Shown: positions 34,597 to 50,999, counted from the first letter of the stretch. The stretch: DNA of 64,000 nucleotides from Spongiibacteraceae bacterium (GCA_047602265.1 JASGHU010000001.1:3465702-3529701); one strand, 5' to 3'. The notes: a model not told the origin generated them from the sequence alone. Numbers and translations are program-made.

Positions 34597-35163
34597 TCAG
34601 GCTGCGATCAATAACGCACTGCCGACAACCGTCAGCAATGCGCCCATTTCGCGATATATATTAACGTTGGTTTTCGATAACAAATTTGCAATAACGAGAC
34701 CCAACCCATGCAGCAGCGCGGTGGCAGCTAACATACCGATACCCGTTGCAATGGGCGCCGAGCCCGACAATTCAGTGCCGTGCGCCAGCCCATGCAACGC
34801 AGCAAATATCGCGACCACACTCAACTGAATGGCAAACGGCATCGTGATCTGTAACAAAAACATCACACCGAGTGCGATCAGGCCAGCGGCGATGCCACTC
34901 TCGATTGCGCCGAACGTTAAACCCGCAACCGCGCTCAGCCAGCCAATCGCCATCGCACTCAAAAACGCGAGCGGCAATTGCCAACGCGCGCTGCCACCGA
35001 TGCGCCCGGCGAAGATACCGACACACAACATCATCAACAAATGATCGACACCCGTAAATGGGTGTGCGAACGCCGACAGAAAACTCTCGCCGTGACCCGG
35101 ATGCGCGAATGCAAACGACGGCAGACAAAACAATGCTGCACCGATCATTTTTTTGTTCATCAT
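34597..35163 (-). CDS. ureJ: HupE/UreJ-family nickel transporter/accessory membrane protein
   Basis: 188 aa. Signal sequence followed by AHPGHG...HPFTGVDHLLMMLCVG, the hallmark of this family. It lies 18 nt downstream of ureG. Confidence 0.85.
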   Translation of the reverse strand: MMNKKMIGAALFCLPSFAFAHPGHGESFLSAFAHPFTGVDHLLMMLCVGIFAGRIGGSARWQLPLAFLSAMAIGWLSAVAGLTFGAIESGIAAGLIALGVMFLLQITMPFAIQLSVVAIFAALHGLAHGTELSGSAPIATGIGMLAATALLHGLGLVIANLLSKTNVNIYREMGALLTVVGSALLIAA

Positions 35164-35181
35164 TAAACTCTCGCTCGTTAA

Positions 35182-35796
35182 TTAATGTTTCATCAGGCCG
35201 CGCGTTTCGATGAAACGCACAATATCTTCCAGGCCCTGACCGGATTTTAAATTGCTGAATAAAAACGGGCGCTCACCGCGCATGCGTTTGGCATCGCGAT
35301 CCATCACTTCGAGCGATGCACCCACCATCGGCGCGAGATCAATTTTATTGATGACAAGCAAATCCGATTTGGTAATGCCGGGTCCGCCCTTACGCGGAAT
35401 TTTTTCGCCTGCGGCCACATCGATCACGTAAATCGTTAAATCGGATAATTCGGGACTGAATGTCGCCGCAAGATTATCGCCGCCGCTTTCGACAAACACG
35501 ATATCGAGCGCTTCAAAACGATTGCACAACTGCGCCACCGCCTCGAGATTCATCGACGCATCTTCGCGAATCGCGGTATGCGGGCAGCCGCCTGTTTCCA
35601 CGCCGATAATGCGCTCGGGCACAAGCGCTTCGTTGCGCGTGAGAAACTCCGCGTCTTCTTTTGTGTAAATATCGTTGGTGACCACCGCGATGTTATAAAC
35701 CTCGCGTAAACGTTTACAGAGCGATAAGGTCAATGCTGTTTTTCCGGAGCCGACCGGGCCACCGATACCGACGCGGAGGGGTTCGTTACTTGCCAT
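35182..35796 (-). CDS. ureG: Urease accessory GTPase UreG
   Basis: P-loop [22 protein letters not shown] and ESGGDNL motifs. Confidence 0.95.
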
Positions 35797-35823
35797 ATTT
35801 TTCGATCACCTATTTTTCAATAA

Positions 35824-36540
35824 TTACGAACGAAATAATCTGCTGTACTGCGTTTCATGCCTTGCACCTGCAATCGACAAGCCCGGTGCAAAATTGCTGA
35901 TTTCATCATCCCCCAGCGCACATGCGGTTTGTACCGCCGCAGGAATTCTTGCGCCAAGCTCTAGCAACATGCGCTGACCCGCGACTTGACCGAGCGGCAC
36001 CGCTTTCATCGCCGCGCTGACCTGATTTTCAATCCACGACCACAAAAATGCATGCAATGAACTGTGCATGGGAATCTGCCACACCGAGGTAGCGCACGCG
36101 TATGCCAATGAAAACGATACGGGCACGAAGCGTTCAATCAACATCAGCGCATCGGTGTCGAGATCGATATCATCGAGCAAGCGCACCAGCGAATAACCCA
36201 TCTGCAATGTTTCGGCGCGCGCTTCGGCGGTATCGCGGCCCGCGCAGTAATAACTGTTCCAGTATTTCAGCGCGGCCAGATCTTTTTTGTCCCACGCCTT
36301 GCGCATACGCCATAACACCGGCAATTCGAAACGGCACATGTAGGTTTCGATCACATCACCAATCCAAACCGCCGCACTGCTGGCATCGGTCACGGTTTGA
36401 GTTTCGATCGCCCATTCCAGCCCTTGCGAATACGCATATGCACCGACCGGCAACATCGGACTCGCCAATTGCAATAATCGGCTGAGATCATTTGGCTCCA
36501 GTGCAATTGCGTATTGCGCTTTAGCTGTCATAGCGATCAA
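35824..36540 (-). CDS. ureF: Urease accessory protein UreF
   Basis: 238 aa. Carries LLQLASPMLPVGAYAYSQGLE, typical of UreF, and has the right position in the operon. Confidence 0.9.
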   Translation of the reverse strand: MIAMTAKAQYAIALEPNDLSRLLQLASPMLPVGAYAYSQGLEWAIETQTVTDASSAAVWIGDVIETYMCRFELPVLWRMRKAWDKKDLAALKYWNSYYCAGRDTAEARAETLQMGYSLVRLLDDIDLDTDALMLIERFVPVSFSLAYACATSVWQIPMHSSLHAFLWSWIENQVSAAMKAVPLGQVAGQRMLLELGARIPAAVQTACALGDDEISNFAPGLSIAGARHETQYSRLFRS

Positions 36541-37019
36541 TGCTCGTGATGGTGATGATGTCCTCCGCCATACGCACCGGCTTCCGGTTCGAATGGCGCC
36601 GATTCTTCAACCACATGCATACTCAAACCGAGCAGCATGGCTTTCAATACATGATCCTGTTCAAGCCGAAGCCAGCCGTCGCCGATTTGCAGCGGCACAT
36701 GGCGATTGGCGAGGTGATAAACCGCTCGCAATAATTGCTGTGAATTGTTGGCGGTTACCTTCATCACAGTTTCGTTCGCAGCGACGACTTTAATCACGCG
36801 CCCGTCACCCGAGCGCAGAAAATCGCCGCCGCGCAAAATCGTTCCGCGCTCCAACATCAGCGCCGCTTCGATGCCGGATTTCAGCGTGACACGCAAACGG
36901 CTTTTCTGACGTAAATCGAAGGGCAAAATCAATTCATCATCGAAATACTCGATTGGCTCGATGCGTTCGGTGATTTGTAAAAGCATTGTGATCATTGTGC
37001 TTGTGTTCTCATCGAGCAC
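36537..37019 (-). CDS. ureE: Urease accessory metallochaperone UreE
   Basis: 160 aa with a His-rich tail (GGGHHHHHEH). 4-nt overlap with ureF. The start may be an internal ATG. Confidence 0.9.
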   Translation of the reverse strand: MLDENTSTMITMLLQITERIEPIEYFDDELILPFDLRQKSRLRVTLKSGIEAALMLERGTILRGGDFLRSGDGRVIKVVAANETVMKVTANNSQQLLRAVYHLANRHVPLQIGDGWLRLEQDHVLKAMLLGLSMHVVEESAPFEPEAGAYGGGHHHHHEH

Positions 37020-38723
37020 CTAAAACAAAAAATACCGTTGTGTCATCGGCAACGATTGCGCCGGCTCGCACGTCAGCAACTCGCCATCGGCGCGCACGAT
37101 ATACGTTTCGGGATCGACATCGATGTGCGGCTGATAATCGTTGAGCACCATATCTTTCTTGCGCACGGTGCGCGTTCCACTCACTGCGACGAGGGGCTTT
37201 TTCAAATTCAGTGCAGCGACCTGCGGATTATTCAACGCCGCTTGCGACACGAAGGTCACCGAGGTTTTTAATCCGCCGCCGAATGAGCCGAACATCGGGC
37301 GATAATGCACCGGCTGCGGAGTTGGAATCGACGCATTGGGATCGCCCATTGCCGCTGCTGCGATGAATCCGCCTTTAATAATTAATGACGGTTTAACTCC
37401 GAAGAATGCGGGCTTCCACAACACGAGATCGGCGAGCTTACCGACTTCGACTGAACCGACTGTGTGCGCAATTCCGTGCGTGAGCGCCGGGTTCATCGTG
37501 TATTTTGCGATGTAACGTTTGATACGGAAATTGTCGTTGCCGCTCACGTCCTGCTTGAGCGAACCGCGCTGCATTTTCATTTTGTGCGCAGTCTGCCAGG
37601 TACGAATAATCACTTCACCGACGCGACCCATCGCCTGTGAATCCGACGACATCATCGAGAACGCGCCGAGGTCATGCAGAATATCTTCGGCGGCAATCGT
37701 TTCGCGGCGAATGCGTGATTCGGCAAACGCGATATCTTCGGCAATCGCGGGATCGAGATGGTGACACACCATCAACATATCCAAATGTTCGTCGATGGTA
37801 TTTACCGTGTAAGGACGCGTCGGATTGGTCGACGACGGCAATACGTTCGCGTAACCCGCCGCTTTAATAATATCGGGCGCGTGACCGCCGCCCGCGCCTT
37901 CGGTGTGGAATGTATGAATCGTGCGATCTTTAAATGCCGCAATCGTGGTTTCAACAAAACCGGATTCGTTAAGCGTGTCAGTGTGAATCGCCACCTGCGT
38001 GTCAGTCGCTTCGGCAACACTCAAACAATTATCGATCGCTGCGGGTGTCGTGCCCCAATCCTCGTGCAATTTCAAACCGATGGCACCCGCTTCGATTTGT
38101 TCGGTGAGCGGCCCCGGTAAACTCGCGTTGCCCTTGCCGAGAAAACCCAAATTCATCGGAAATGCATCGGCCGCTTCGAGCATGCGATGCATGTACCACG
38201 GCCCTGGCGTACACGTGGTGGCGAAGGTGCCTGTCGCGGGACCAGTGCCGCCACCAATCATCGTGGTGACGCCGGACATCAACGCTTCTTCGATTTGTTG
38301 CGGGCAAATAAAATGAATATGCGAATCGATTCCGCCTGCCGTGATAATCGAACCTTCGCCCGCGATAATTTCAGTGCCTGCGCCGATCGGAATCGTCACG
38401 CCCGGTTGAATATCGGGATTGCCCGCTTTACCGATCGCAGAAATTTTTCCGTTCTTGATACCGATATCTGCTTTGACGATGCCCCAGTAATCAATAATCA
38501 CCGCGTTGGTGATGACGGTATCGGCGACTTGCGCAGAGAGCAATTGCCCCTGCCCCATGCCGTCGCGAATGACTTTGCCGCCGCCGAATTTCACTTCTTC
38601 GCCATAGATCGTGAAATCTTTTTCGATTTCGATCCACAAATCAGTATCGGCGAGACGCACTTTGTCGCCGACGGTGGGACCGAACATTTCGGCATAGGCT
38701 TGGCGCGATATTTTTCTACTCAT
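37020..38723 (-). CDS. ureC: Urease alpha subunit UreC
   Basis: 567 aa. Carries [37 protein letters not shown], the carbamylated-Lys region GLKLHEDWG, and MVCHHL. Confidence 0.97.
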
Positions 38724-38735
38724 GGTAGGTTTTTC

Positions 38736-39044
38736 TCACTTCAACTTGCCCATCACGCGACCGGCAAAACCATAAACGACGCGATCACCCGCGAGTGCAA
38801 CCAATTGCACCGTGCGCGTTTGACCCGGTTCGAAACGCACCGCGGTTCCTGCGGCAATATCCAAACGAAATCCATACGCTTTTTCGCGATCGAACGCGAG
38901 CGCGTCGTTGGTTTCGAAAAAATGATAATGCGAGCCGACTTGAATCGGGCGATCGCCCGTATTCGCCACTTCGATTTCCACCGTCGCGCGACCGACATTC
39001 AATTCGATGTCGCCTGCTGCAATTTGCATTTCACCTGGGATCAT
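38736..39044 (-). CDS. ureB: Urease beta subunit UreB
   Basis: 102 aa. MIPGE...[19 protein letters not shown]. Confidence 0.95.
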
Positions 39045-39062
39045 GGAGCCTCCAATATTTTT

Positions 39063-39184
39063 CCCTCTCCCGTTCGGGGAGAGGGATTAAGGGAGAGGGC
39101 TTACGAAGTTTAAAAGTATCAATTGAAATAATTTCAACATCGCTGCCCTCTCCCCTGCCCCTCTCCCCAAATGGGAGAGGGGAG
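39063..39184. repeat. Composite palindromic (REP/MITE-like) element, copy A, filling the ureA-ureB spacer
   Basis: CCCTCTCCCgttcgGGGAGAGGGattaaGGGAGAGGGC ... GCCCTCTCCCCtgCCCCTCTCCCCaaatGGGAGAGGGGAG. The arms are mutually inverted. Confidence 0.9.
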
Positions 39185-39187
39185 TCT

Positions 39188-39490
39188 TTATGGTATCGGA
39201 TGATGCACCGTCACCAATTTCGTACCATCTGGAAACGTCGCCTCGACTTGAATTTCGGGAATCATTTCCGCGACGCCTTCCATCACATCATCGCGCGACA
39301 ATAATGTCGCGCCATGGCCCATGAGCTGCGCCACGGTCATACCATCGCGCGCGCCTTCCATAATCGCAGCGGTAATAAACGCGACCGCTTCCGGGTAATT
39401 CAATTTGAGACCGCGCGCTTTTCTACGCTCGGCTAATAGCGCTGCGGTAAAAATCAGCAGCTTGTCTTTTTCTCTGGGTGTCAGTTCCAT
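39188..39490 (-). CDS. ureA: Urease gamma subunit UreA
   Basis: 100 aa. [35 protein letters not shown]. Confidence 0.95.
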
Positions 39491-39537
39491 GCGTCTGTCT
39501 TTTTTGCAATGAGCGTTAATTTTTTAGGAAAAATGAA

Positions 39538-40473
39538 TTAAGTAGACCAAATACGCGGGCGCTGCGTATCGACACTCGCATACCAGGGCCGCAACACATG
39601 CCACAACTGTTCGAAATACATGCGCGCCTGTTCGATGTTATCGCCGATAAAGCGCGCTGCGAAAATTCCCGGTAACGCTGTTACGCCATAACCATTATTT
39701 GCTTGCCCGACTTTTTCGACAGGAACGATCGCTCTACACGCTTCGAGAATATCTGCGGGTACTGCCCCTGCCGCCACCAGAAATACTGCACTGATGGTAT
39801 GGCCGTTCAAACCAACTGGCGATAGCATCGCTCGCGATCCCGCTTCGAGATTCGCCGCTTCATTCCACAATAATTCGTCGTCGCGCCAGATTTGCACGTG
39901 CTGCTGCAAATGCCCCTGTGCGAATTTTTCACCGGCTGCGCGGCGACCGAAACAGAGCATTTCCCAGCCGGCGAATTTCGCATCGGCTGCGAGCTCGACG
40001 CGCGCACTCATTCGCACTCGCGCCGCATCGAACAGTATCGTTTCCTGTGGCAACCATTCGAGCGTAGCGCCCGCGCTCACCTTGAAACGTAAATGCTGCG
40101 CCGCATCGCGCCCGTTGGCCTTGTACCATTTTCCCGCACCCGGCGTTGTCAGCAATGCATGCGCACCTTCATCGAGATTCACATGCAGATGCAATTCATC
40201 GCCACCGGCAATACCGCCGGGAGGATGCACGATCACCGCGTGACAAATACCATCGCCTTCGGGATAGAGCGGCTTCTGCACCACCAGCGGACCCGAATGC
40301 ATGCGTTCAACCAAAACGGTGCGCTGCTTTTGCGCGGCAAAACGCACATCGAGCTGTGCACGCCAATTGGCGGTCATCTTATTCAGAGAGCCTGCAAACG
40401 ATGCACCACTCTGCACATCATCATGAACATCGCGAACACTAACGTCACAGGCTTCATCAGATGGCCTATGCAT
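39538..40473 (-). CDS. ureD: Urease accessory protein UreD
   Basis: Carries HSGPLVVQKPLYPEG, typical of UreD/UreH. The probable true start is the ATG at 40377 (MTANWRAQL...). Confidence 0.88.
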   Translation of the reverse strand: MHRPSDEACDVSVRDVHDDVQSGASFAGSLNKMTANWRAQLDVRFAAQKQRTVLVERMHSGPLVVQKPLYPEGDGICHAVIVHPPGGIAGGDELHLHVNLDEGAHALLTTPGAGKWYKANGRDAAQHLRFKVSAGATLEWLPQETILFDAARVRMSARVELAADAKFAGWEMLCFGRRAAGEKFAQGHLQQHVQIWRDDELLWNEAANLEAGSRAMLSPVGLNGHTISAVFLVAAGAVPADILEACRAIVPVEKVGQANNGYGVTALPGIFAARFIGDNIEQARMYFEQLWHVLRPWYASVDTQRPRIWST

Positions 40474-40512
40474 AGCAAAAAATCTTATCCGACATAGCGA
40501 GGAGCGCTGCGA

Positions 40513-41211
40513 TCAAAGCGCAACGAAATTGCGAATATTGTCGTTATCCATATCGGCGCCCTTACCCTGCTTGACCACTTGACCACGCGACATTACCAGA
40601 TAGTGATCGGCGAGCGCACGTGCGAAATCGTAATACTGCTCGACGAGCAATATCGCCATATCGCCGCGTTGTGCCAGCGTGCGAATCACGCGCTCGATAT
40701 CTTTGATGATCGAGGGCTGAATACCTTCGGTAGGCTCATCGAGGATCAGCAATTTTGGTTTCGAGGCGAGCGCGCGACCGATTGCGAGCTGCTGTTGCTG
40801 CCCGCCGGATAAATCGCCACCGCGACGATGCTGCATATCCTTGAGCACGGGAAACATGGTGAAAATTTCGGCGGGCACATCGGAAACCTTGCCGCTTTTT
40901 TTCACGGCGAGACCCATTTGCAAATTTTCCATCACCGTAAGCCGCGCGAAAATTTCGCGGCCCTGCGGCACATAGGCGATACCCGCCGCTGCGCGCTCGT
41001 ACGGGGTCATCGCCGTCACATCCTTGCCGTCGAAATTGACCTTGCCGCCTTTAACGGGAATCGCACCCATCAAACATTTGAGCAAGGTGGTTTTGCCAAC
41101 GCCGTTGCGACCAAGCAATACCGTGCATGCGCCATTCGGCACATCGAAAGAAATATCGCGCAGCGTTTGCGAGCTGCCATAAAACTGATTTAAATTTTTT
41201 ATCGATAACAC
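40513..41211 (-). CDS. urtE: Urea ABC transporter ATP-binding protein UrtE
   Basis: 232 aa. Walker A GRNGVGKTT, signature LSGGQQQQLAIGRAL, and the fifth position in the urt block. Confidence 0.88.
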   Translation of the reverse strand: MLSIKNLNQFYGSSQTLRDISFDVPNGACTVLLGRNGVGKTTLLKCLMGAIPVKGGKVNFDGKDVTAMTPYERAAAGIAYVPQGREIFARLTVMENLQMGLAVKKSGKVSDVPAEIFTMFPVLKDMQHRRGGDLSGGQQQQLAIGRALASKPKLLILDEPTEGIQPSIIKDIERVIRTLAQRGDMAILLVEQYYDFARALADHYLVMSRGQVVKQGKGADMDNDNIRNFVAL

Positions 41212-41238
41212 AATATTTCCTCAACACTTCGGACTGTT

Positions 41239-41329
41239 CCCTCTCCCATTTCGGGAGAGGGTTAGGGAGAGGGCATTTCTGCATCGAAACCCTCTCCCCC
41301 AACCCCTCTCCCCTAAAGGGAGAGGGGAG
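41239..41329. repeat. Composite palindromic (REP/MITE-like) element, copy B, in the urtD-urtE spacer
   Basis: CCCTCTCCCatttcGGGAGAGGGttaGGGAGAGGGC ... CCCTCTCCCCCaaCCCCTCTCCCCtaaaGGGAGAGGGGAG. Confidence 0.9.
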
Positions 41330-41331
41330 TT

Positions 41332-42171
41332 TTATCTACCCAAATAAACTTCAATGACTTTCTCGTCATTTTGCACTTGATCCATCGGCCCTTCCGCGAG
41401 GACGCTACCTTCGTGCAATACGGTCACTTTGCGTGCGATGCGATTGATGAAATCCATATCGTGCTCGACCACCATGATCGAATGTTTTCCGGCCAGGGTA
41501 TTGAGCAATTCGGCGGTGCGTTCGGTTTCGTGATCGGTCATGCCCGCGACGGGCTCGTCGAGCATCAATAATTTCGGATCCTGCGCGAGCAGCATGCCGA
41601 TTTCGAGCCATTGTTTTTGCCCGTGCGAAAGCAATCCCGCGCGCGTGTTCGCTTTATCGGCGAGTTGAATCAAATCGAGAATTTCGGCGATGCGATCGGT
41701 CTGCTCGGAATTCAATTTCCCGAATAGCGAATGCCAGATGCCCTTGTCGGTTTTTATCGCGAGTTCGAGATTTTGAAACACGCTGTGTTGCTCAAATACC
41801 GAAGGCTTCTGAAATTTTCGACCGATGCCGGCCTGCGCAATCGCAGGTTCGTTCAATTTGGTGAGATCGAGTGTCTGCCCGAAAAACACGGTGCCGGTAT
41901 CGGGCCGCGTTTTCCCCGTGATCACATCCATCATCGTGGTTTTGCCAGCGCCATTCGGGCCGATAATGCAGCGCAACTCACCGACATCGATCGACAGCGA
42001 TAATTTATTCAGCGCGCGAAAACCATCAAAACTGACGGTGACATCTTCGAGGTATAAAACCACGCCATGCGACGTATCGAGCTCGCCCGGCACATGAATA
42101 TGCGCGTTGCTCGCACTGCCCCCTTCAGGAATATTAAGAGGGGGAACATTTTCAATTTCCGCCATGATCAT
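41332..42171 (-). CDS. urtD: Urea ABC transporter ATP-binding protein UrtD
   Basis: 279 aa. Walker A GPNGAGKTT, signature LSHGQKQWLEIGMLL, and the N-terminal extension typical of UrtD. Confidence 0.88.
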   Translation of the reverse strand: MIMAEIENVPPLNIPEGGSASNAHIHVPGELDTSHGVVLYLEDVTVSFDGFRALNKLSLSIDVGELRCIIGPNGAGKTTMMDVITGKTRPDTGTVFFGQTLDLTKLNEPAIAQAGIGRKFQKPSVFEQHSVFQNLELAIKTDKGIWHSLFGKLNSEQTDRIAEILDLIQLADKANTRAGLLSHGQKQWLEIGMLLAQDPKLLMLDEPVAGMTDHETERTAELLNTLAGKHSIMVVEHDMDFINRIARKVTVLHEGSVLAEGPMDQVQNDEKVIEVYLGR

Positions 42172-42184
42172 TGAACCCTATATC

Positions 42185-43303
42185 TCATTGGCTTTTGCTG
42201 CGTAATTTGGACAGCAGACCCAGCACGCCGGTTGGCAGAAATAATGTGACGAGAATAAATATCAAGCCGAGGAAATACAGCCAGTATTCGGGAAACGCCA
42301 CCGTGAAATAACTTTTTGCGCCATTGACGATACCCGCACCGAGCAGCGGACCGATCAAGGTGCCACGCCCACCGACCGCAGCCCAGATCGCAATTTCGAT
42401 CGACGCAGCGGGCGACATTTCGCTCGGATTGATAATACCGACCTGCGGCACATACAACGCACCCGCGATGCCGCACACCACCGCTGAAAATGTCCAGATC
42501 GCGAGTTTGTAATGCAATGTCGTGTAACCCGAGAACATGGTGCGGCCTTCGGCGTCGCGAATCGCGGTGAGCACACGACCGAATTTGCTGCTGACGATAA
42601 AACGCGATATCAGCAAAAGTCCGAGTAAAACGATGCCGGTTGTCACGAATAACGCCATGCGCATTTCGCTCGTCGCAACCGGAATGCCGGCGATGCGCTT
42701 GAAATCGGTGAAACCATTATTGCCACCGAAACCCGTTTCATTGCGAAAGAACAACAACATGGCCGCGTAGGTTAATGCCTGCGTGATAATCGAGAGATAC
42801 ACGCCTTTGATGCGCGAGCGAAACGCGAAATAACCGAACACGAACGCGAGCACGCCAGGCACCAGTACGACGAGCAACAATGCGTACCAGAGATGATCGG
42901 TAAATGCCCAGAACCACGGATATTCTTTCCAATCGAGAAACACCATGAAGTCGGGCAAATCGCTTTGATAATTGCCATCGCGGCCGATCTGACGCATCAG
43001 ATACATGCCGAATGCATAACCGCCGAGCGCGAAAAACAAACCGTGCCCCAAACTCAAAATACCCGTGTACCCCCACACCAGATCCATGGCGAGCGCGACG
43101 ATGGCGTAGCACAGAATTTTTCCGCACAGCGCAACGGTGTAATCGGAAATATGGAGCGCGCTCGTTTCTGGCATGACCAGATTGAGCACGGGAAACATCA
43201 CACAAATTACGATTAACGCAACGACAAATCCGGCCCAACCCTTGACGCCAAACAAACGCATAAGCGGACTCTGATTTTTTATTGGCAATGAAACATCAAG
43301 CAT
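42185..43303 (-). CDS. urtC: Urea ABC transporter permease UrtC
   Basis: 372 aa, polytopic, LivM-like. Position in the urt block supports the call. Confidence 0.88.
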   Translation of the reverse strand: MLDVSLPIKNQSPLMRLFGVKGWAGFVVALIVICVMFPVLNLVMPETSALHISDYTVALCGKILCYAIVALAMDLVWGYTGILSLGHGLFFALGGYAFGMYLMRQIGRDGNYQSDLPDFMVFLDWKEYPWFWAFTDHLWYALLLVVLVPGVLAFVFGYFAFRSRIKGVYLSIITQALTYAAMLLFFRNETGFGGNNGFTDFKRIAGIPVATSEMRMALFVTTGIVLLGLLLISRFIVSSKFGRVLTAIRDAEGRTMFSGYTTLHYKLAIWTFSAVVCGIAGALYVPQVGIINPSEMSPAASIEIAIWAAVGGRGTLIGPLLGAGIVNGAKSYFTVAFPEYWLYFLGLIFILVTLFLPTGVLGLLSKLRSKSQ

Positions 43304-44912
43304 CGGCGGAACGACCTTTCAACGCAAACAGTCCCTGCGGACGTTTTTGAATGAAGAAAATAATGATGACGAGCACGATGATTTTGGCGAGCACCGCACC
43401 CGAAAACCCTTCGAGGAATTTGCTGATAATGCCGAGACCGAGCGCTGCATACACTGCACCTGCAAGCTGACCGACACCACCGAGCACCACCACCATGAAC
43501 GAATCGACGATGTAATTGCTGCCGAGATCAGGGCCGACGTTGGTAACTTGCGACAACGCCACACCGGCGAGACCGGCGACACCCGACCCCAAACCGAATG
43601 CGCGCATATCGACACTCGCGGTATTCACGCCGACACAACTGGCCATGCCGCGATTTTGCGTCACCGCGCGCACGAATAAACCAAGCCGCGTTTTCGTCAG
43701 CAACAGCCACATGCCGAGCAGCACCAGCGCCGAAAAAATAATGATCGCAATGCGGTTATACGGCAGCGTTAAATTCGCAGCGATATCGATACCACCGGAC
43801 AACCACGCGGGATTTTCCACCTGCACGTTTTGCGCACCGAAAATACTGCGCACGCTCTGCATCAGCATGAGACTGATGCCCCACGTTGCCAGCAAGGTTT
43901 CAAGCGGGCGACCGTAGAGAAAACGAATCACCGTGCGTTCGAGAATCATGCCCACAACAGCAGTGACCACGAACGCGACAGGAATCGCCGCGAGAATATA
44001 CGCATCGAAAAATTGCGGCAGGTGCGCACGAAATAAATTTTGCACGACAAACGTGGCGTACGCACCGAGCATCATCATTTCGCCGTGGGCCATATTGATG
44101 ACACCCATCAGGCCGTAGGTGATGGCGAGCCCCAATGCCGCGAGCAATAAAATCGAACCGAGACTGATACCGGTAAAGACACGACCGATGATTTCATAAA
44201 TCTGTAGATGACGATCGATAGCGTCGATCGAATATTGAATCGCAGCGCGCACATCGGGATCGGTTTCACCGCCATCAGCCAAGCGCGTCGACAACATCTG
44301 CTTCACATTCTGATTAGTGCCGCTGCCAAGCATTTTCGCTGCAGCCATGCGCACATTTTTATCTGCGCTTTGCAATTGCGCTCCGGCCAGAATCTGCACG
44401 AGCGCATCTTTCAACTCGCTGTCTTTTTCGTTCGCCACCGCGACTTCGAGTAATTTAGTTTTGCTCTCGTCGATTTCAGCGTCCTGCAGGATTTTCACCG
44501 CATCAGCGCGTACGCTGCGATTCTCGTCTTGCAGATTCAGAAACGCGATGCCGGCCTCAATCTCGCTGCGGATCAGATTGTTATTAACGATATCTTCGGC
44601 ATCGGCCGGTAACTCCGCCGCTGCGCCGGTGATGGGATCGATTGCATTACCGCTCGCATCGATCATAAAAACTTTGTCGCCCGCGAACTTCACACTGTCA
44701 TCGAGCATGGCTTGTAGAAAGGTTTTTGCAGAGCTGTCGCCATTCACGACCACCTTGCTGATAGCTGTGATACGCGTTTCGTAATCGCCAGTGGCGAGTG
44801 CAGTGTAATCTTCGGCGGTTAATGCGAATACGCGAGCGCTGCTGAGTAGCGCGATTAAAAGCACAACACTGCGGACTATTAACACGGCACAGGGATTTGC
44901 CCAGTTGCGCAC
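43296..44912 (-). CDS. urtB: Urea ABC transporter permease UrtB (long form with N-terminal periplasmic extension)
   Basis: 538 aa. Signal/TM segment, an extension of about 230 aa, then a LivH-like permease. 8-nt overlap with urtC. Confidence 0.88.
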   Translation of the reverse strand: MRNWANPCAVLIVRSVVLLIALLSSARVFALTAEDYTALATGDYETRITAISKVVVNGDSSAKTFLQAMLDDSVKFAGDKVFMIDASGNAIDPITGAAAELPADAEDIVNNNLIRSEIEAGIAFLNLQDENRSVRADAVKILQDAEIDESKTKLLEVAVANEKDSELKDALVQILAGAQLQSADKNVRMAAAKMLGSGTNQNVKQMLSTRLADGGETDPDVRAAIQYSIDAIDRHLQIYEIIGRVFTGISLGSILLLAALGLAITYGLMGVINMAHGEMMMLGAYATFVVQNLFRAHLPQFFDAYILAAIPVAFVVTAVVGMILERTVIRFLYGRPLETLLATWGISLMLMQSVRSIFGAQNVQVENPAWLSGGIDIAANLTLPYNRIAIIIFSALVLLGMWLLLTKTRLGLFVRAVTQNRGMASCVGVNTASVDMRAFGLGSGVAGLAGVALSQVTNVGPDLGSNYIVDSFMVVVLGGVGQLAGAVYAALGLGIISKFLEGFSGAVLAKIIVLVIIIFFIQKRPQGLFALKGRSADA

Positions 44913-44951
44913 GAAATTATTCTCCGAACTATTAAGGTACTTCGATTAATT

Positions 44952-45071
44952 CCCTCTCCCGTTCGGGGAGAGGGTTAGGGAGAGGGCAACGGAGCTTAAA
45001 TAATTTTTTGAAAAATATTCGAGTATCGTAGCCCTCTCCCCCACCCCCTCTCTCCTGAAGGGAGAGGGGAG
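44952..45071. repeat. Composite palindromic (REP/MITE-like) element, copy C, in the urtA-urtB spacer
   Basis: CCCTCTCCCgttcgGGGAGAGGGttaGGGAGAGGGC ... GCCCTCTCCCCCaCCCCCTCTCTCCtgaaGGGAGAGGGGAG. Confidence 0.9.
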
Positions 45072-45080
45072 TTTTCAGGA

Positions 45081-46358
45081 TTAAATCTTCTCCGGCTCAT
45101 CCTTCTTCTTGTCGTTACCAGGAATGAACGGGCTCCACGGTTGTGCTTTGATCGGGCCCGGTGTTTTCCAAACGACGTTGAATTGACCGTCAGCTTTCAC
45201 TTCACCGATAAATACCGGTTTGTGCAGGTGATGGTTTTTCTCGTCCATTTTCGCCACGAAGCCAGACGGTGCGTTGAAGGTTTGACCCGCCATTGCCTTG
45301 ATCACTGCATCGACGTCGGTAGTGCCGGCTTTTTCAACAGCCTGCTTCCACATATTGATGCCGATATAGCTCGCTTCCATCGGATCGTTGGTGAGTGGCT
45401 TGCTCGCGCTCGACAGACCTTTCGCTTTCGCGTAATCAGCCCACTTCTTCTTGAACGCTTCGTTCGCCGGGTTTTTCAGCGACATGAAGTAGTTCCATGC
45501 AGCGAGGTGACCTACCAGCGGTTTGGTATCGACGCCGCGCAACTCTTCTTCACCGACCGAGAACGCAACGACCGGAACATCCTTCGCTTTCAAACCCTGG
45601 TTGCCGAGTTCTTTGTAGAACGGCACGTTCGAATCGCCGTTGATGGTAGAGATCACCGCTGTCTTGCCGCCAGCGGAGAATTTCTTGATATCGGCAACGA
45701 TCGTTTGATAATCGCTGTGGCCGAACGGGGTGTATTTCTCGTCGATATCTTTATCGTCGATGCCTTTCGAATGCAGGAACGCACGCAGGATTTTGTTGGT
45801 GGTACGCGGATAGACGTAGTCGGTACCGAGCAGAACGAAGCGTTTAGCACCACCACCTTCTTTGCTCATGAGATATTCCACTGCGGGAATCGCCTGCTGG
45901 TTGGGAGCAGCACCGGTATAAAACACGTTCTTGGAGAGTTCTTCACCTTCGTATTGAACGGGGTAAAACAACAGGCCGTTCAGTTCCTCGTATACCGGCA
46001 ACACCGATTTACGCGATACCGACGTCCAGCAGCCGAAGGTCACCGCAACTTTATCTTTGGTCAGCAATTGACGCGCCTTCTCCGCGAACAACGGCCAGTT
46101 CGAAGCCGGGTCAACTACCACGGGCTCAAGCTTGCGACCGAGCACACCGCCGCTGGCGTTAATTTCGTCGATTGCCATCAACACGGTGTCTTTCAACACG
46201 GTTTCGGAAATGGCCATCGTGCCCGACAGCGAATGCAATACGCCGACTTTGATCGGCTCTTTATCAGCGGCAAACACGCTGGACGCGCTGCCGAGCGCAA
46301 GCGCGACGCCGGCGGCGAGTGCGCTCATTTTTTTAAGGAAGGTGCGACGTTGTTGCAT
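45081..46358 (-). CDS. urtA: Urea ABC transporter substrate-binding protein UrtA
   Basis: 425 aa. Twin-Arg-like signal (MQQRRTFLKK...VFA) followed by the UrtA hallmark IKVGVLHSLSGTMAISE. Confidence 0.9.
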   Translation of the reverse strand: MQQRRTFLKKMSALAAGVALALGSASSVFAADKEPIKVGVLHSLSGTMAISETVLKDTVLMAIDEINASGGVLGRKLEPVVVDPASNWPLFAEKARQLLTKDKVAVTFGCWTSVSRKSVLPVYEELNGLLFYPVQYEGEELSKNVFYTGAAPNQQAIPAVEYLMSKEGGGAKRFVLLGTDYVYPRTTNKILRAFLHSKGIDDKDIDEKYTPFGHSDYQTIVADIKKFSAGGKTAVISTINGDSNVPFYKELGNQGLKAKDVPVVAFSVGEEELRGVDTKPLVGHLAAWNYFMSLKNPANEAFKKKWADYAKAKGLSSASKPLTNDPMEASYIGINMWKQAVEKAGTTDVDAVIKAMAGQTFNAPSGFVAKMDEKNHHLHKPVFIGEVKADGQFNVVWKTPGPIKAQPWSPFIPGNDKKKDEPEKI

Positions 46359-46547
46359 ATCGAGATTCTCCTGGAATGCTGATTAGGCTTTATCGGAATG
46401 ACTGGTGTTGGAAACAACGGATGTCAGGAACATCTGGCCTACGCATTAGAGTTTTTTGGGCCACTGCCGACAATGCGTCAAATGACGTATGCCATGCGTA
46501 GTTGATGGTGATAACTTGCCCGACGGAGAATACTGACGCGCATTAAA

Positions 46548-49500
46548 ATGTGTCAGACTCACCACTCACATCTTCAACACAACCAGAACGGAACCACCAT
46601 GGGGGAATACCGCCCGCAGCGTGTCTTCAATATTCGCCGCGATTACAACTCATGGGTCGCTAACGAAACGCTCGAAGATTACGCGTTACGTTTTGCGCCA
46701 CGCTCATTTCGCAAATGGTCGGCGTTTCGCGTCGCCAATACGGCGTTTGGCTCGATTTCATTTCTCGTGCTCGAAGCGATCGGTGGCTCGCTCACCATCA
46801 CCTACGGTTTTGAAAATGCGTGCTGGGCGATTCTTGCCGTCGGTCTCGTTATTTTTCTGACCGGATTTCCGATCGCCTACTACGCGGCGAAATACAATAT
46901 CGATATGGATTTGCTCACGCGCGGTGCCGGCTTTGGCTACATCGGCTCGACGCTAACTTCGTTAATTTACGCATCGTTCACGTTTACGCTATTCGCGCTC
47001 GAAGCCTCGATCATGTCGCTCGCGCTGCAGCTGTATTTGAATATTCCACTGTGGATCGCGCATTTAATTAGCGCGGTGGTGGTGATTCCGCTCGTCACCT
47101 ACGGCATAACCAACATCAACCGTCTGCAATTGTGGACACAACCGCTGTGGCTGTTATTACTCGCCCTACCCTACGGCGCCGTACTCCTTAAAGAAGGTTC
47201 CGCGTTACCGGAATTATTGAGTTTTCGCGGCAATAGCGATGAGCACTCGGCATTTTCGTGGCTATCGTTCGGCGCGGCGACCACCGTGGCGTTCGCGATG
47301 ATTGCGCAAATCGGCGAGCAGGTGGATTTTCTGCGCTTCCTGCCGGAAAAAACCCGCGAGAATCGCGCGCAGTGGTGGAGCGCCGTGATCATCGCCGGTC
47401 CCGGTTGGATCGTATTCGGGATTTTGCGCCAACTCGGCGGTGCCTTTCTCGCGTATCTCGCGATCAAATACGGCGTCAATGCCATGCACGCGCACGAACC
47501 GACGCAAATGTTTTTGATGGCCTTTCGCTACCTGACCGAGCCATTCAAAAACTCCGCCGCAATCGCCATCACGCTGACGGTATTACTCGTCGTTATTTCG
47601 CAAATCAAAATCAACGTCACCAACGCTTACGCCGGCTCGCTCGCGTGGTCGAATTTCTTTTCGCGACTGACGCACTCGCATCCGGGTCGTGTCGTCTGGC
47701 TTGTATTCAATGTCGCCATTGCGCTGCTGTTGATGGAGCTCGGTTTATTCAACGCACTCGAACGCGTGCTCGGATTATTTTCCAACGTCGCGATCGCATG
47801 GATCGGCGCCCTCGTTGCCGATCTCGTCATCAACAAACCGCTGCGGTTGAGCCCTTCGTATATCGAATTCAAACGCGCGTATCTGCCCGACATCAATCCG
47901 GTCGGCGTCTTCTCCACCCTGCTCGCCTCGCTCATTTCCATCGCGGCGTATCTCGGTTTATTCGGGGAAATGGCGCAGGCATTTTCCGCATTCATCGCGC
48001 TGTGCATTGCATTTATTTCGGCGCCGATTCTCGCCATCGTCACTCGCGGAAAATTTTACCTCGCTCGCGATCGCAATCTCTGGCCCGATGGTGCGCAGCC
48101 CACCGATAAATGCTGTATTTGCGGCAATCGTTTCGAACGCGAGGACAATGCGTATTGCCCCGTCTACCAAGGCACGATCTGCTCGCTGTGCTGCACGCTC
48201 GATGCGCGCTGTCGCGATGCGTGCAAACCGCAATCGCGCCTCGAAGATCAATTGCAGTACCTGGCCAATCTGATTCTGCCCAAGCGATTTTCGCCGCAAC
48301 TCAAACTGCGCCTGCTGCAATTCTTTCTGCTGTATCTATTACTCGCCGGGCTGACGATTATTTTTGTCGGTGTCATTTATTATCAGGATATTCTGGCAAT
48401 CTCGGCCGGCGAGCATTATTACTCGACGCTGCTCATCAATAATTTCATCAAGATTTATTCGTGCCTAACGATATTTCTCGGTCTAGGCACCTGGTGGCTC
48501 ATTCTCAACAACGAGAGCCGTCAGGTGGCGCAGGAAGAATCGAATCGGCAGACGCTGCTGCTCATCAAGGAAATCGAAGAGCACCGCAAGACCGATGCGA
48601 AATTGCAGCAAGCGAAAGAAGCGGCCGATCGCGCGAACTTGGCGAAGAGCCGCTTTCTTACCGATATGAGTCACGAAATTCGCACGCCGCTCAATAGCAT
48701 TCTCGGCTACGCGCAAATCATGCGCAAAGATACGTCGATCCCGGAGCATCGGCGCGAAGCTATCGGCATCATGCAGAACAGCGGCGAACATTTATCGCGC
48801 CTCATCGAAGATATTCTCGATATCGCACGCATCGAGGCGCGCAAATTCGATTTGAAGCGCGCGCCGATCGATTTTCCATCGTTCATCGAACACATGGTGC
48901 GCATGTTCAAGCCGCAGGCGGAGAGCAAAGGCTTGGCGTTTCGCTGTCAGGTGCTGTATCAATTGCCGCGTTACATTCGCGGCGACGAACACCGCCTGGG
49001 GCAAATTTTAATTAATTTACTGAGCAACGCGATTAAATTTACCGATAGCGGCGAAGTCGTTTTACACATCGAATACAGCGGTCAGGTCGCGGTGTTCAGT
49101 ATTATCGATAGCGGTCGCGGTATTCCCGAAGATAAGCGCGACGATATTTTTCAACCGTTTCGCCGCCTCAGCAATCCCAACGGCAATGCCGTTGCCGGCA
49201 ACGGTTTGGGTTTAACGATCAGTAAAATTCTCACCGAAATCATGGGCGGCGAACTCAGTATTCGCAGCAACGAACCTCACGGCACAATTTTTACCGTGCG
49301 CCTGTTCATGCCGGAATTACACAACATTGCTATCGCTCAGGACGAAGGTGAAATCGTCGCCTATCGCGGCCAGCGTCGCAGCGTATTGATTGCCGACGAT
49401 CAGGCCGAGCAGCGCAATTTATTGAAATCGGTATTGGCGCCGCTCGGCTTCGAATTGCACGAGGCCTCATCAGGCGAACAATGCTTCGAGCTTGCGCTGC

Positions 49501-49985
49501 AGTTGAAACCGGATCTGATTTTGCTCGATATCGTCATGGGCGGCATGACGGGTATCGAAGTCACACAGCGTCTGCGTCAGGCGGGATCGCTATCGAGCAT
49601 CATCGTGGTCAGCGCCAATGCGTTTCAGAGTCATCGACACGAAGCGACTCAAGCCGGCTGCGATAATTTCGTGCCCAAGCCGATTCAAATCGACGAATTG
49701 CTCCGTAAAATAAAGCTGCACCTGAGTCTCGACTGGGTTTATGCCGGCGAAGAACTCCCCGTGAACGAAGTGGTGGAAAATACGCCGATGCAAATTCCGC
49801 CCGCGCATTATTTGAGCGAGCTGGCCGAATTTGCGCGCATCGGCGATTTGCGCGGCCTGGCTGACAGACTGCATACGCTCGCCGAGAAAGAGCCGGGGTA
49901 CATCGCGTTTGTATCGCACCTGCAAACGCTATCGCGCGAATTTCGCCTCGCCGACATCAAGCGCCTGCTCAATCACAAGCACTGA
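46548..49985 (+). CDS. Hybrid sensor histidine kinase with N-terminal NCS1 (cytosine/purine permease)-like 12-TM domain, Cys-rich insert, HisKA-HATPase, receiver and C-terminal helical domain
   Basis: 1145 aa. The permease-like N-terminus includes LEDYALRFAPRSFRKWS and LLTRGAGFGYIGS. There are 9 Cys in 38 aa (CCICGNRFEREDNAYCPVYQGTICSLCCTLDARCRDAC). H-box MSHEIRTPLNSILGY, G-boxes, and REC (LILLDIVMGGMTG). The start may be the ATG at 46599. Confidence 0.85.
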   Translation: MCQTHHSHLQHNQNGTTMGEYRPQRVFNIRRDYNSWVANETLEDYALRFAPRSFRKWSAFRVANTAFGSISFLVLEAIGGSLTITYGFENACWAILAVGLVIFLTGFPIAYYAAKYNIDMDLLTRGAGFGYIGSTLTSLIYASFTFTLFALEASIMSLALQLYLNIPLWIAHLISAVVVIPLVTYGITNINRLQLWTQPLWLLLLALPYGAVLLKEGSALPELLSFRGNSDEHSAFSWLSFGAATTVAFAMIAQIGEQVDFLRFLPEKTRENRAQWWSAVIIAGPGWIVFGILRQLGGAFLAYLAIKYGVNAMHAHEPTQMFLMAFRYLTEPFKNSAAIAITLTVLLVVISQIKINVTNAYAGSLAWSNFFSRLTHSHPGRVVWLVFNVAIALLLMELGLFNALERVLGLFSNVAIAWIGALVADLVINKPLRLSPSYIEFKRAYLPDINPVGVFSTLLASLISIAAYLGLFGEMAQAFSAFIALCIAFISAPILAIVTRGKFYLARDRNLWPDGAQPTDKCCICGNRFEREDNAYCPVYQGTICSLCCTLDARCRDACKPQSRLEDQLQYLANLILPKRFSPQLKLRLLQFFLLYLLLAGLTIIFVGVIYYQDILAISAGEHYYSTLLINNFIKIYSCLTIFLGLGTWWLILNNESRQVAQEESNRQTLLLIKEIEEHRKTDAKLQQAKEAADRANLAKSRFLTDMSHEIRTPLNSILGYAQIMRKDTSIPEHRREAIGIMQNSGEHLSRLIEDILDIARIEARKFDLKRAPIDFPSFIEHMVRMFKPQAESKGLAFRCQVLYQLPRYIRGDEHRLGQILINLLSNAIKFTDSGEVVLHIEYSGQVAVFSIIDSGRGIPEDKRDDIFQPFRRLSNPNGNAVAGNGLGLTISKILTEIMGGELSIRSNEPHGTIFTVRLFMPELHNIAIAQDEGEIVAYRGQRRSVLIADDQAEQRNLLKSVLAPLGFELHEASSGEQCFELALQLKPDLILLDIVMGGMTGIEVTQRLRQAGSLSSIIVVSANAFQSHRHEATQAGCDNFVPKPIQIDELLRKIKLHLSLDWVYAGEELPVNEVVENTPMQIPPAHYLSELAEFARIGDLRGLADRLHTLAEKEPGYIAFVSHLQTLSREFRLADIKRLLNHKH

Positions 49986-50057
49986 TCAATTACAAAGACT
50001 CATCAATCACAAACACTAACAATATGAACGATGCATATTTAATTCTGGGACCTTGCC

Positions 50058-50999
50058 ATGATGACAGAGGACACATTTTCCAACTCAACGCCGGCTAACC
50101 AAAATGCCAACAGCGGCACCGTCATGATTGTCGACGATACCCCGGCAAATCTTGCCGTTCTTTCCGATGCACTGGTGGAGTCGGGTTATCGTGTGCTCGT
50201 GGCAACCGATGGCTACTCGGCGCTGGAGCAATTAAATTTCATCCGCCCCGATGTGATTTTGCTCGACGGCATGATGCCGGGCATCGATGGTTTCGAAACC
50301 TGTCATCGCATCAAACAGCGCGAAGAAACGCGCAACATTCCGATTCTATTTATGACCGCGCTCGGCGATATCGATAATTTGCTGCGCGGCTTCAGCGAAG
50401 GTGCGATCGACTACATCGTCAAACCCTTTCGCAACGAAGAAGTGCTGGCACGCGTCGGCGCCCACGTTTCGCGTGGACGCTTGATGCAGCGCGCAGAACA
50501 AGCCCTCAGCGAAAGCGGTATGAATGCCTTGGCGATCGATCCGCGCGGTGCGATCACCTGGATTACTGATAATGCGGTGAAGTTGCTCGATGCGTTTCCG
50601 GAGTTTTCACAATCGCGCGCACTACCGCCTGCATTGATCGATCTGGCACTGAGCTGTGCCACTCAATGCGATGACAGCAGCGCCGGAAAATTCGACTTTA
50701 AAAACCTATCGGTAAAAATCGCGCCGTGCTTCGACCGCACCGAGTTTCTTTTATTGCTGCAAAAAAGCGGCGAGGATTGGGATCTCGATGCCGTGCGCAA
50801 CGAGCTGGGACTCACCGCACGGGAAGCAGAAATTTTAATGTGGATTTCGCGCGGAAAAACCAATCGCGATATCGGCACCATTCTCGATTCAAGCCCGCGT
50901 ACGGTGAATAAACATCTCGAACATATTTTCGAAAAGCTAGGCGTCACCACGCGCAGCGCAGCGGTTTCCAAAGCGTTGCAGCGCGTGAAAGAGGGATAA
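50058..50999 (+). CDS. Response regulator: receiver + uncharacterised middle region + LuxR-type HTH
   Basis: 313 aa. REC (VMIVDDTPANL...VILLDGMMPGIDG...K) and a C-terminal LTAREAEILMWISRGKTNRDIGTILDSSPRTVNKHLEHIFEKLGV. Confidence 0.85.
   Translation: MMTEDTFSNSTPANQNANSGTVMIVDDTPANLAVLSDALVESGYRVLVATDGYSALEQLNFIRPDVILLDGMMPGIDGFETCHRIKQREETRNIPILFMTALGDIDNLLRGFSEGAIDYIVKPFRNEEVLARVGAHVSRGRLMQRAEQALSESGMNALAIDPRGAITWITDNAVKLLDAFPEFSQSRALPPALIDLALSCATQCDDSSAGKFDFKNLSVKIAPCFDRTEFLLLLQKSGEDWDLDAVRNELGLTAREAEILMWISRGKTNRDIGTILDSSPRTVNKHLEHIFEKLGVTTRSAAVSKALQRVKEG

Follow-up and report, generated by a model that had tools for sequence, protein, structure and literature searches.

We analyzed a 64 000-nucleotide stretch of Spongiibacteraceae bacterium DNA (GCA_047602265.1 JASGHU010000001.1:3465702-3529701), referred to below as the window. 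It contains a urea uptake and urease gene block and, divergent from its first gene urtA, a gene pair coding for a transporter-like hybrid histidine kinase and a response regulator, which are the subject of this analysis. The urtA gene (45081-46358, minus strand) is identified by TIGR03407 (598 bits, cut-off 493) and by Pfam Peripla_BP_5. According to the map of open reading frames (ORFs), it is followed on the same strand, with short gaps, by urtBCDE, ureD, ureA, ureB, ureC, ureE, ureF and ureG together with an ORF of 188 amino acids (aa) (34597..44912). UrtB-E, UreC, UreE and UreG exceed the NCBIfam cut-offs, while ureD, ureA, ureB and ureF were assigned from position and size only. The urt and ure genes form a single unbroken minus-strand block extending from 46358 to ~34600, and urtA and the urtBCDE-ure block probably constitute one transcription unit.

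The hybrid sensor histidine kinase (46548..49985, plus strand, 1145 aa) and the response regulator (50058..50999, plus strand, 313 aa) lie on the other side of urtA. A sequence-only reading of the same stretch had placed urtA, the kinase and the regulator at these positions, and the ORFs are indeed found there, with a gap of 189 bp between urtA and the ATG at 46548. Because close homologues of the kinase are ~1128 aa long, the true start is probably Met18 at 46599 (1128 aa). The divergent control region shared by urtA and the kinase gene is 46359..46598 and contains repeats.

Within this region we found an 18-bp palindrome, ATGCGTCAAATGACGTAT (46473..46490), the predicted binding site of the regulator. 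It has the size bound by LuxR/GerE-type dimers. Comparison of the upstream regions of kinase genes revealed that the palindrome is kept in the divergent promoters of orthologous loci from alpha-, beta- and gammaproteobacteria, with the consensus ATACGTCA-NN-TGACGTAT. The sequence of the window recurs unchanged in two of the fetched loci (L009 and L011; loci are denoted by L numbers), and L008 has ATGCGTCAAATGACGTAC with one difference. More distant versions are ATACGTCAAATTACGTAT in a member of Methylophilaceae (L038), ATACGTCATATGACGTAG and ATACGTCGATTGACGTAT in Paraburkholderia (L001 and L004, respectively), ATACGTAGAATGACGTAT in Chelatococcus (L003) and ATACGCGTTTTTGCGTAT in Methylobacterium (L002). 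A scan of the fetched loci and the window (1.5 Mb) with up to two mismatches returned 18 sites against ~0.4 expected by our own uniform-base estimate, and all 18 are within loci coding for the kinase and the regulator. In the window itself the match is unique at up to two mismatches (0.04 expected). Wherever the flanks were mapped (the window, L001-L004, L008, L011, L016, L017 and L023), the site is located in the divergent promoter region. Methylococcales often have two sites, 16 bp apart, and none of the cyanobacterial loci scanned has one. The association was also seen in the reverse direction. Among 120 metagenome stretches containing the exact motif, 28 have short flanks that code for UrtA, FmdA, the regulator or the kinase sensor. 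The genes most commonly starting within 450 bp of the metagenome operator are those of the kinase (17 loci), UrtA-like proteins (14), a LuxR-type paralogue devoid of the receiver (REC) domain (6) and porins (5). Comparative genomics thus shows a link between the predicted operator and its putative regulon.

The sequence-only reading had drawn attention to repeated ACGCAT/ATGCGT half-sites in the same gap. The hexamers are over-represented as noted, occurring three times (46441, 46473 and 46494) where the window-wide rate predicts ~0.15, and the left arm of the palindrome is itself one of these hexamers. The outer pair emphasized in that reading, CTACGCAT...ATGCGTAG, is real as well, a perfect inverted repeat whose 8-nt arms are separated by 47 nt, but it is not the conserved element. 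Outside the nearest relatives the pair is not kept (L008 lacks an outer repeat, and the one in L009 is different), and we rejected it as the operator.

Toward urtA we located a weak sigma-70-like promoter (46445..46473, minus strand) with a -35 hexamer TTGTCG (46473->46468), a 17-nt spacer and a -10 hexamer TCTAAT (46450->46445). The palindrome abuts this -35 hexamer and its center would be near -43, the position of a class II activator. The same geometry can be recognized by eye in L011 and L001. However, since the hexamers are under the threshold of the scan tool, the promoter placement should be regarded as tentative; the sigma-70 scan of the control region reported a single site, on the wrong side.

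We then considered the kinase itself, described in the sequence-only reading as starting with a complete NCS1 permease domain. Hydropathy analysis shows ~12 transmembrane (TM) segments at aa 66-499 (TM5 is under the threshold and was read by eye) and two further ones at aa 592-610 and 628-652. The region aa 1-521 has no match in Pfam, PF02133 (Transp_cyt_pur) included, even at E<=10, so that the Pfam confirmation envisaged earlier was not obtained for the window protein. Sequence searches of PDB with the N-terminal 520-680 aa, either as a single protein or as a small family profile, did not produce a match either. The relationship to NCS1 is therefore visible only through structure prediction and hhalign. 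The AlphaFold model of aa 17-690, built from 49 homologues, has a pLDDT of 86.2 and a pTM of 0.85. The top five Foldseek matches are all CodB and Mhp1 structures (E 3e-9 to 3e-7, TM-scores of 0.68-0.81 normalised to the target). CodB (7qoa) is the best of them (E 3e-9, TM-score of 0.77-0.81 to the target), the Mhp1 structures 2jln, 4d1a and 2x79 reach ~0.7, and SSS, APC, NRAMP and NKCC transporters rank below the NCS1 members. The hhalign comparison of the family alignment with Escherichia coli CodB provides moderate support (probability 78%, E 1.8e-5, 342 columns); the R-x-x-FG-x-x-GS loop, the D-F-x-R-F motif and an N-terminal ED..L..P...R.W-like segment are aligned between the two. Sequence identity to NCS1 transporters is 16-20%. 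A distant stand-alone relative (P0228) scores 17.9 bits against PF02133, under the gathering cut-off of 23.5, and some stand-alone relatives bear precomputed PF02133 matches and are named 'purine-cytosine permease-like' by JGI/NCBI. The motifs LEDYALRFAPRSFRKWS and LLTRGAGFGYIGS, singled out earlier as typical of the domain, are present and highly conserved. Based on these models, the N-terminal domain (aa ~40-500; 46665..48047) is a divergent, atypical branch of the NCS1 fold, and the main structural claim of the sequence-only reading, homology to a transporter, is borne out by the fold and hhalign matches.

The TM domain is followed by a Cys-rich domain (aa 522-559; 48111..48224). There are nine Cys in 38 residues, as had been counted before, and eight of them are invariant in 49 homologues (38-92% identity) with the pattern C-x2-C-x11-C-x7-C-x2-C-C-x5-C-x3-C. 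The segment has no relative in Pfam or PDB searches. It had been called an insert, but this label does not hold. Stand-alone proteins of ~550 aa from Actinomycetota and Alicyclobacillus have the same 12-TM domain and end in the same Cys tail, so the segment is not specific to the kinase and is an ancestral C-terminal tail of this transporter subfamily. NCS1 topology implies that the tail is cytoplasmic. The 8-Cys domain is probably metal-binding; two Zn(Cys)4 sites would be our guess, an Fe-S cluster being conceivable too.

The remaining order of modules agrees with the earlier description. A TM13-TM14 hairpin (aa 592-652; 48321..48503), defined by hydropathy and long model helices, has a loop of ~17 aa and returns the chain to the cytoplasm. 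A coiled-coil linker (48504..48641), seen in the sequence and as helix 607-673 in the model numbering, leads into the DHp helix. HisKA (aa 699-764, E 4.7e-21) and HATPase_c (aa 812-920, E 1.2e-25) span 48642..49307, and the receiver of the hybrid kinase (aa 946-1055, E 5.6e-25) spans 49383..49712. All three exceed the Pfam cut-offs (75, 90.5 and 88 bits, respectively), and the H-box reads MSHEIRTPL. The C-terminal helical tail (aa 1056-1145; 49713..49982) is conserved over ~90 aa rather than the ~120 aa proposed earlier and includes the motifs RIGDLxGL and EFRLxDIK. It was tried as an HPt domain and rejected, as no His is conserved among 160 homologues and neither Pfam (Hpt included) nor PDB has a match to it.

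The regulator (50058..50999, plus strand) consists of REC (aa 22-133), a long helix, a PAS-like domain (aa ~156-236) and a LuxR/GerE helix-turn-helix (HTH) domain (aa 252-305). Pfam supports REC (98.7 bits) and GerE (58.1 bits), in agreement with the REC-LuxR partner recognized earlier, and the extra domain lies between the two. The receiver active site (D26, D27, D70, T100 and K122) is invariant in the alignments. The middle domain of ~80 aa is conserved, and its AlphaFold model (pLDDT 86.6) has the topology b-b-a-a-a-b-b-b, which makes it PAS-like in structure. By sequence the PAS assignment is weak (DcuS PAS at E 0.25; PAS_8 in 3 of 17 members). The fold search with the regulator returned mostly REC matches; matches of the middle domain to 'Pizza' designed propellers were discarded as repeat artefacts. 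The REC-less LuxR-type paralogue mentioned above has the same PAS-like and HTH domains. It occurs in L177 (1585-2670) and five other metagenome loci, starting within ~20 bp of an exact operator, which suggests an autoregulated one-component regulator acting on the same DNA site.

Full-length orthologues of the kinase and the regulator are found in replicons of Paraburkholderia, Methylobacterium, Chelatococcus and Azospirillum, as well as in Methylococcales, Methylophilaceae and relatives. According to tblastn searches of the fetched loci, urt genes are beside the pair in 17 of the 18 informative loci of alpha-, beta- and gammaproteobacteria. A lack of synteny with urea genes, which would have counted against the sequence-only reading, was thus not observed. 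In Dechloromonas aromatica, a 1131-aa kinase and a 308-aa receiver protein adjoin UrtA (PMC2907700), and in E. guguanensis the pair adjoins urtABCDE and fmdA (PMC13296017). The loci come in two flavours. In the urease flavour (the window, L008, L010, L011, L014-L017 and L038), urea-type urtABCDE is followed by urease, while the formamidase flavour (L001-L004, L023, L025, L030, L052 and L076) features a urt paralogue (~42% UrtA identity) and fmdA. Since about half of the orthologues flank formamidase and a urt-like transporter, the system is not urease-specific. The earlier proposal of a urease regulator is therefore supported in its association with urt but not in its restriction to urease.

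The sensor module extends well beyond these loci. It is matched by at least 8000 clusters at 90% identity and by 1873 cluster representatives at 50% identity (E<=1e-3), and it is also fused to PAS-GAF-GGDEF-EAL and PAS-kinase-HPt outputs, which makes it a portable module. All six stand-alone relatives examined (L005, L006 and L089-L092) are in amidase-signature clusters with an ORF of 64-72 aa. Genes for an isochorismatase-like hydrolase, a CN-hydrolase or a GntR (GntR/UTRA) regulator occur in many of these clusters as well. An amidase combined with so small an ORF would resemble AtzE/AtzG of cyanuric-acid and biuret catabolism. Cyanobacterial relatives (63-66% sensor-domain identity) are non-hybrid kinases without the receiver, and a few of them are near formamidase or aliphatic amidase genes. 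Judging by gene content, the common denominator of the neighbours is the hydrolysis of small carbamoyl or amide compounds. Two features of the cyanobacterial loci (L018-L087) may be added. Sixteen have a ~1550-aa multidomain signalling gene (kinase/AAA-like by eye) directly upstream, and seven have a gene for a REC plus MarR-type-looking regulator after the kinase.

We propose that the kinase and the regulator form a two-component system that serves specifically for urea or short-chain amides and activates urt-ure through the palindrome. We consider this rather probable, with appreciable room for doubt. The NCS1-derived 12-TM domain would bind, and through a putative transport activity maybe translocate, a small carbamoyl compound, predicted to be urea here and formamide or other small amides in relatives. 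As the anatomy of the protein suggests, the ligand-dependent conformation would be relayed via the 8-Cys domain, presumably in its metal-bound form, the TM13-TM14 hairpin and the coiled coil to HisKA/HATPase. The phosphoryl group might pass to the REC-PAS-like-LuxR regulator either straight from the His of the kinase, whose own receiver would then be a modulator or sink, or via an HPt encoded elsewhere. The phosphorylated regulator dimer would then bind the palindrome at 46473-46490 and, if the sign of regulation is positive as we infer, activate urtABCDE-ureDABCEFG; it may control its own operon too.

A different source of the signal can be envisaged. The 8-Cys domain (responding to nickel or zinc, through an Fe-S cluster or to redox state) or the PAS-like domain of the regulator could be the sensor, with the NCS1-like part being mainly a transporter or scaffold. 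Urease requires nickel, the eight Cys do not vary between kinase-fused and stand-alone forms, the regulator has its additional conserved PAS-like domain, and in the transporter-fused kinase CbrA histidine did not modulate kinase activity (PMC7096432). Yet this Cys domain is shared by formamidase-linked kinases and by stand-alone transporters whose neighbours are metal-independent amidases, so it is not tied to a nickel enzyme, and its pattern is equally compatible with a structural double zinc site. Moreover, fusion of the sensor module to GGDEF-EAL and PAS-kinase outputs is what would be expected of a portable ligand-sensing input. We therefore view a Cys- or PAS-borne signal as unlikely.

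Another possibility is that the NCS1-like domain senses a classical substrate of this family (allantoin or another ureide, cytosine, a purine or hydantoin), urea being a downstream product of ureide catabolism. This would be in line with the nearest solved folds, which are cytosine and hydantoin transporters, with the database names of the relatives and with the amidase-signature and isochorismatase-like hydrolases clustered with stand-alone relatives, which could act on larger ureides or amides. The putative binding site argues against such a ligand. In CodB, the substrate is sandwiched by two aromatic residues conserved throughout NCS1, a Trp in TM3 and a Phe or Trp in TM6 (PMC9379551). In the hhalign register, CodB W108 corresponds to Leu148, F204 to Met251 and Gln105 to Thr145 of the kinase; this register rests on the 78%-probability alignment, with conserved motifs anchoring both sides. 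The replacement of the stacking aromatics argues for a ring-less, probably smaller ligand and against cytosine, purines and hydantoins. The ion site is less clear. CodB W277-T279 (TM8) falls into an hhalign gap, an alternative register gives Ile and Asn, and the Na2 Thr pair is not clearly kept, while an invariant Lys (aa 354) is present in TM8 near the Na2-site region. Thus, of the substrate- and Na+-site residues whose inspection the sequence-only reading had suggested, the stacking pair is replaced and the Na2 pair is doubtful. Finally, none of the orthologues examined is flanked by allantoin, purine or pyrimidine catabolic genes; the flanks contain urease, formamidase and amidases. A classical NCS1 substrate consequently has little credibility as the signal.

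Another feature of the sensor domain is aa 172 (47059-47064), the sole conserved position at which the two groups of sensors are separable: 7 of 8 urease-linked sensors have His there, and 13 of 14 formamidase-linked ones have Tyr. Tyr is also present at this position in stand-alone transporters, and the residue may represent a specificity determinant or a lineage effect.

The least probable alternative is that the adjacency to urtA reflects shared nitrogen control (NtrC/sigma-54), the two-component system acting on other genes or only on itself. In its favour, urt and urease are NtrC-dependent in Burkholderia (PMC5491218), and autoregulation of the kinase operon could be the only role of the palindrome. 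Against it, no sigma-54 promoter motif was found in the control region. The palindrome is invariably part of the divergent promoter common to both sides, and in loci with an intervening porin, fmdA or lipoprotein gene it remains at the promoter on the transporter side. Extra copies away from the kinase gene are found upstream of urtA (L038) and near ureC (L172).

Several observations nevertheless weigh against a urea- or amide-responsive system controlling urt-ure. The ligand is drawn from gene neighbourhood only, the hexamers of the urtA promoter are weak and were identified by eye, and urease- and formamidase-linked sensors differ at one conserved position only, aa 172. In one proteobacterial locus (L013), no urt gene lies within 10 kb of the orthologue, and most of the cyanobacterial relatives have neighbours other than urt, ure or fmd. 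No HPt that would complete a His-Asp-His-Asp relay can be recognised in the hybrid kinase. In CbrA, the transported substrate (histidine) had no effect on kinase activity in vitro, the two being largely independent (PMC7096432), and hence a transporter domain is no proof that its substrate is the signal. The full-text literature contains genome papers that list the gene pair, and no functional study of the family was found in it, subscription-only literature being outside the search.

A broader and considerably more speculative version of the proposed urea/amide system would make it a new class of transceptor. The NCS1-derived domain would bind and move urea or small amides and, with a metal-binding 8-Cys domain, report the flux to kinase, diguanylate-cyclase or other outputs. 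In environmental Proteobacteria and Cyanobacteria it would fill the place of a substrate-specific urea/amide sensor that has so far been missing, its operator being ATACGTCA-NN-TGACGTAT and its regulon comprising porin, urt, urease or formamidase genes. We consider this possible but doubtful.

The closest known counterparts are the SLC5/STAC kinases (CbrA/CbrB, CrbS/CrbR, also known as MxtR/ErdR, and RpuS/RpuR), which likewise have a complete LeuT-fold transporter N-terminal to the histidine kinase. CrbS is also a hybrid kinase, like the one in the window. STAC is a small cytoplasmic connector that is found on stand-alone transporters too. The position of the 8-Cys domain parallels that of STAC in SLC5-fused kinases. 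CrbR and RpuR are reported to activate uptake or catabolic genes of the cognate nutrient via a conserved promoter motif (PMC5715377, PMC9100948). CbrA is a proven transporter plus kinase (PMC7096432). We conclude that the system is a variation on the transporter-fused kinases represented by CbrA and CrbS, from which it differs in transporter family, connector and regulon. Its transporter domain is NCS1-like, with CodB and Mhp1 as the top folds, and the window kinase has no Pfam match to SSS or STAC. The connector is the 8-Cys domain and then the 2-TM hairpin, the putative regulon covers uptake and hydrolysis of a nitrogen source (urea or amides), and the regulator has the extra PAS-like domain. 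With NCS1 transporters (Mhp1 and CodB; PF02133, TC 2.A.39) the sensor shares the 12-TM LeuT fold, whereas the kinase adds the Cys-rich tail and the kinase modules and has Leu/Met in place of the stacking Trp/Phe.

Substrate- or nitrogen-dependent control of urea and amide genes, as proposed here, is also exerted by UreR, NtrC/Nac, AmiC-AmiR and FmdB. UreR is an AraC-type protein that binds urea in the cytoplasm, AmiC, also cytoplasmic, is a periplasmic-binding-protein-like amide sensor controlling the antiterminator AmiR, and NtrC reports nitrogen status rather than substrate. None of these is known to be a two-component system whose sensor resembles a membrane transporter. Amt-HK of 'Ca. Kuenenia' does use a nitrogen-compound transporter fold as the input of a histidine kinase, although it is the Amt/Mep/Rh fold, with another ligand and other partners.

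Urea ranks among the main forms in which nitrogen is exchanged in soils, waters and host-associated habitats, and the control of urease in most environmental bacteria is currently ascribed to general nitrogen regulators. The sensor is found in methanotrophs, Burkholderiales, Rhizobiales, Azospirillum and many cyanobacteria, and the system is widespread, ecologically relevant and directly testable. If the proposal is correct, it would explain the induction of high-affinity urea and amide uptake only when the substrate is present. NCS1 would become the second transporter superfamily branch among the few transporter-fused kinases, and the compact, predictable sensor-operator pair could be used in urea or formamide biosensors. 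The invariant 8-Cys domain, common to transporters and kinases, may be a structural or regulatory module in its own right.

Some neighbouring genes and elements deserve a mention. In Methylococcales relatives, a lipoprotein-like ORF of 260-316 aa ending in ...IIHNQGxPVIxxFGHER is located directly upstream of the kinase gene, in the same orientation (L012, L013, L016, L017, L023, L025, L030, L052 and L076; for example, L016:9098-9970 and L023:9179-9955). A porin-like gene coding for ~410 aa precedes urtA in L008, L016 and L017. The window has neither a lipoprotein-like nor a porin-like gene between urtA and the kinase gene.

Within the urt-ure block, UrtB (43296-44912) is 538 aa long, and the UrtB model covers only aa 244-534. 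The first ~240 aa make up a distinct extension, rich in repeats and HEAT-like by eye; UrtB of Dechloromonas is listed as similarly long, 525 aa (PMC2907700). The block also contains a GC-rich hairpin, CCCCTCTCCC-N5-GGGAGAGGGG, in six copies arranged as three pairs (44951-45069, 41238-41327 and 39062-39182), each pair in a composite element of ~120 nt. Within the 64-kb window the copies are confined to the gaps urtA-urtB, urtD-urtE and ureA-ureB, whereas shuffled sequences predict none. The element looks like a repetitive extragenic palindrome (REP) or a miniature inverted-repeat transposable element (MITE) and could affect differential mRNA stability inside the operon.

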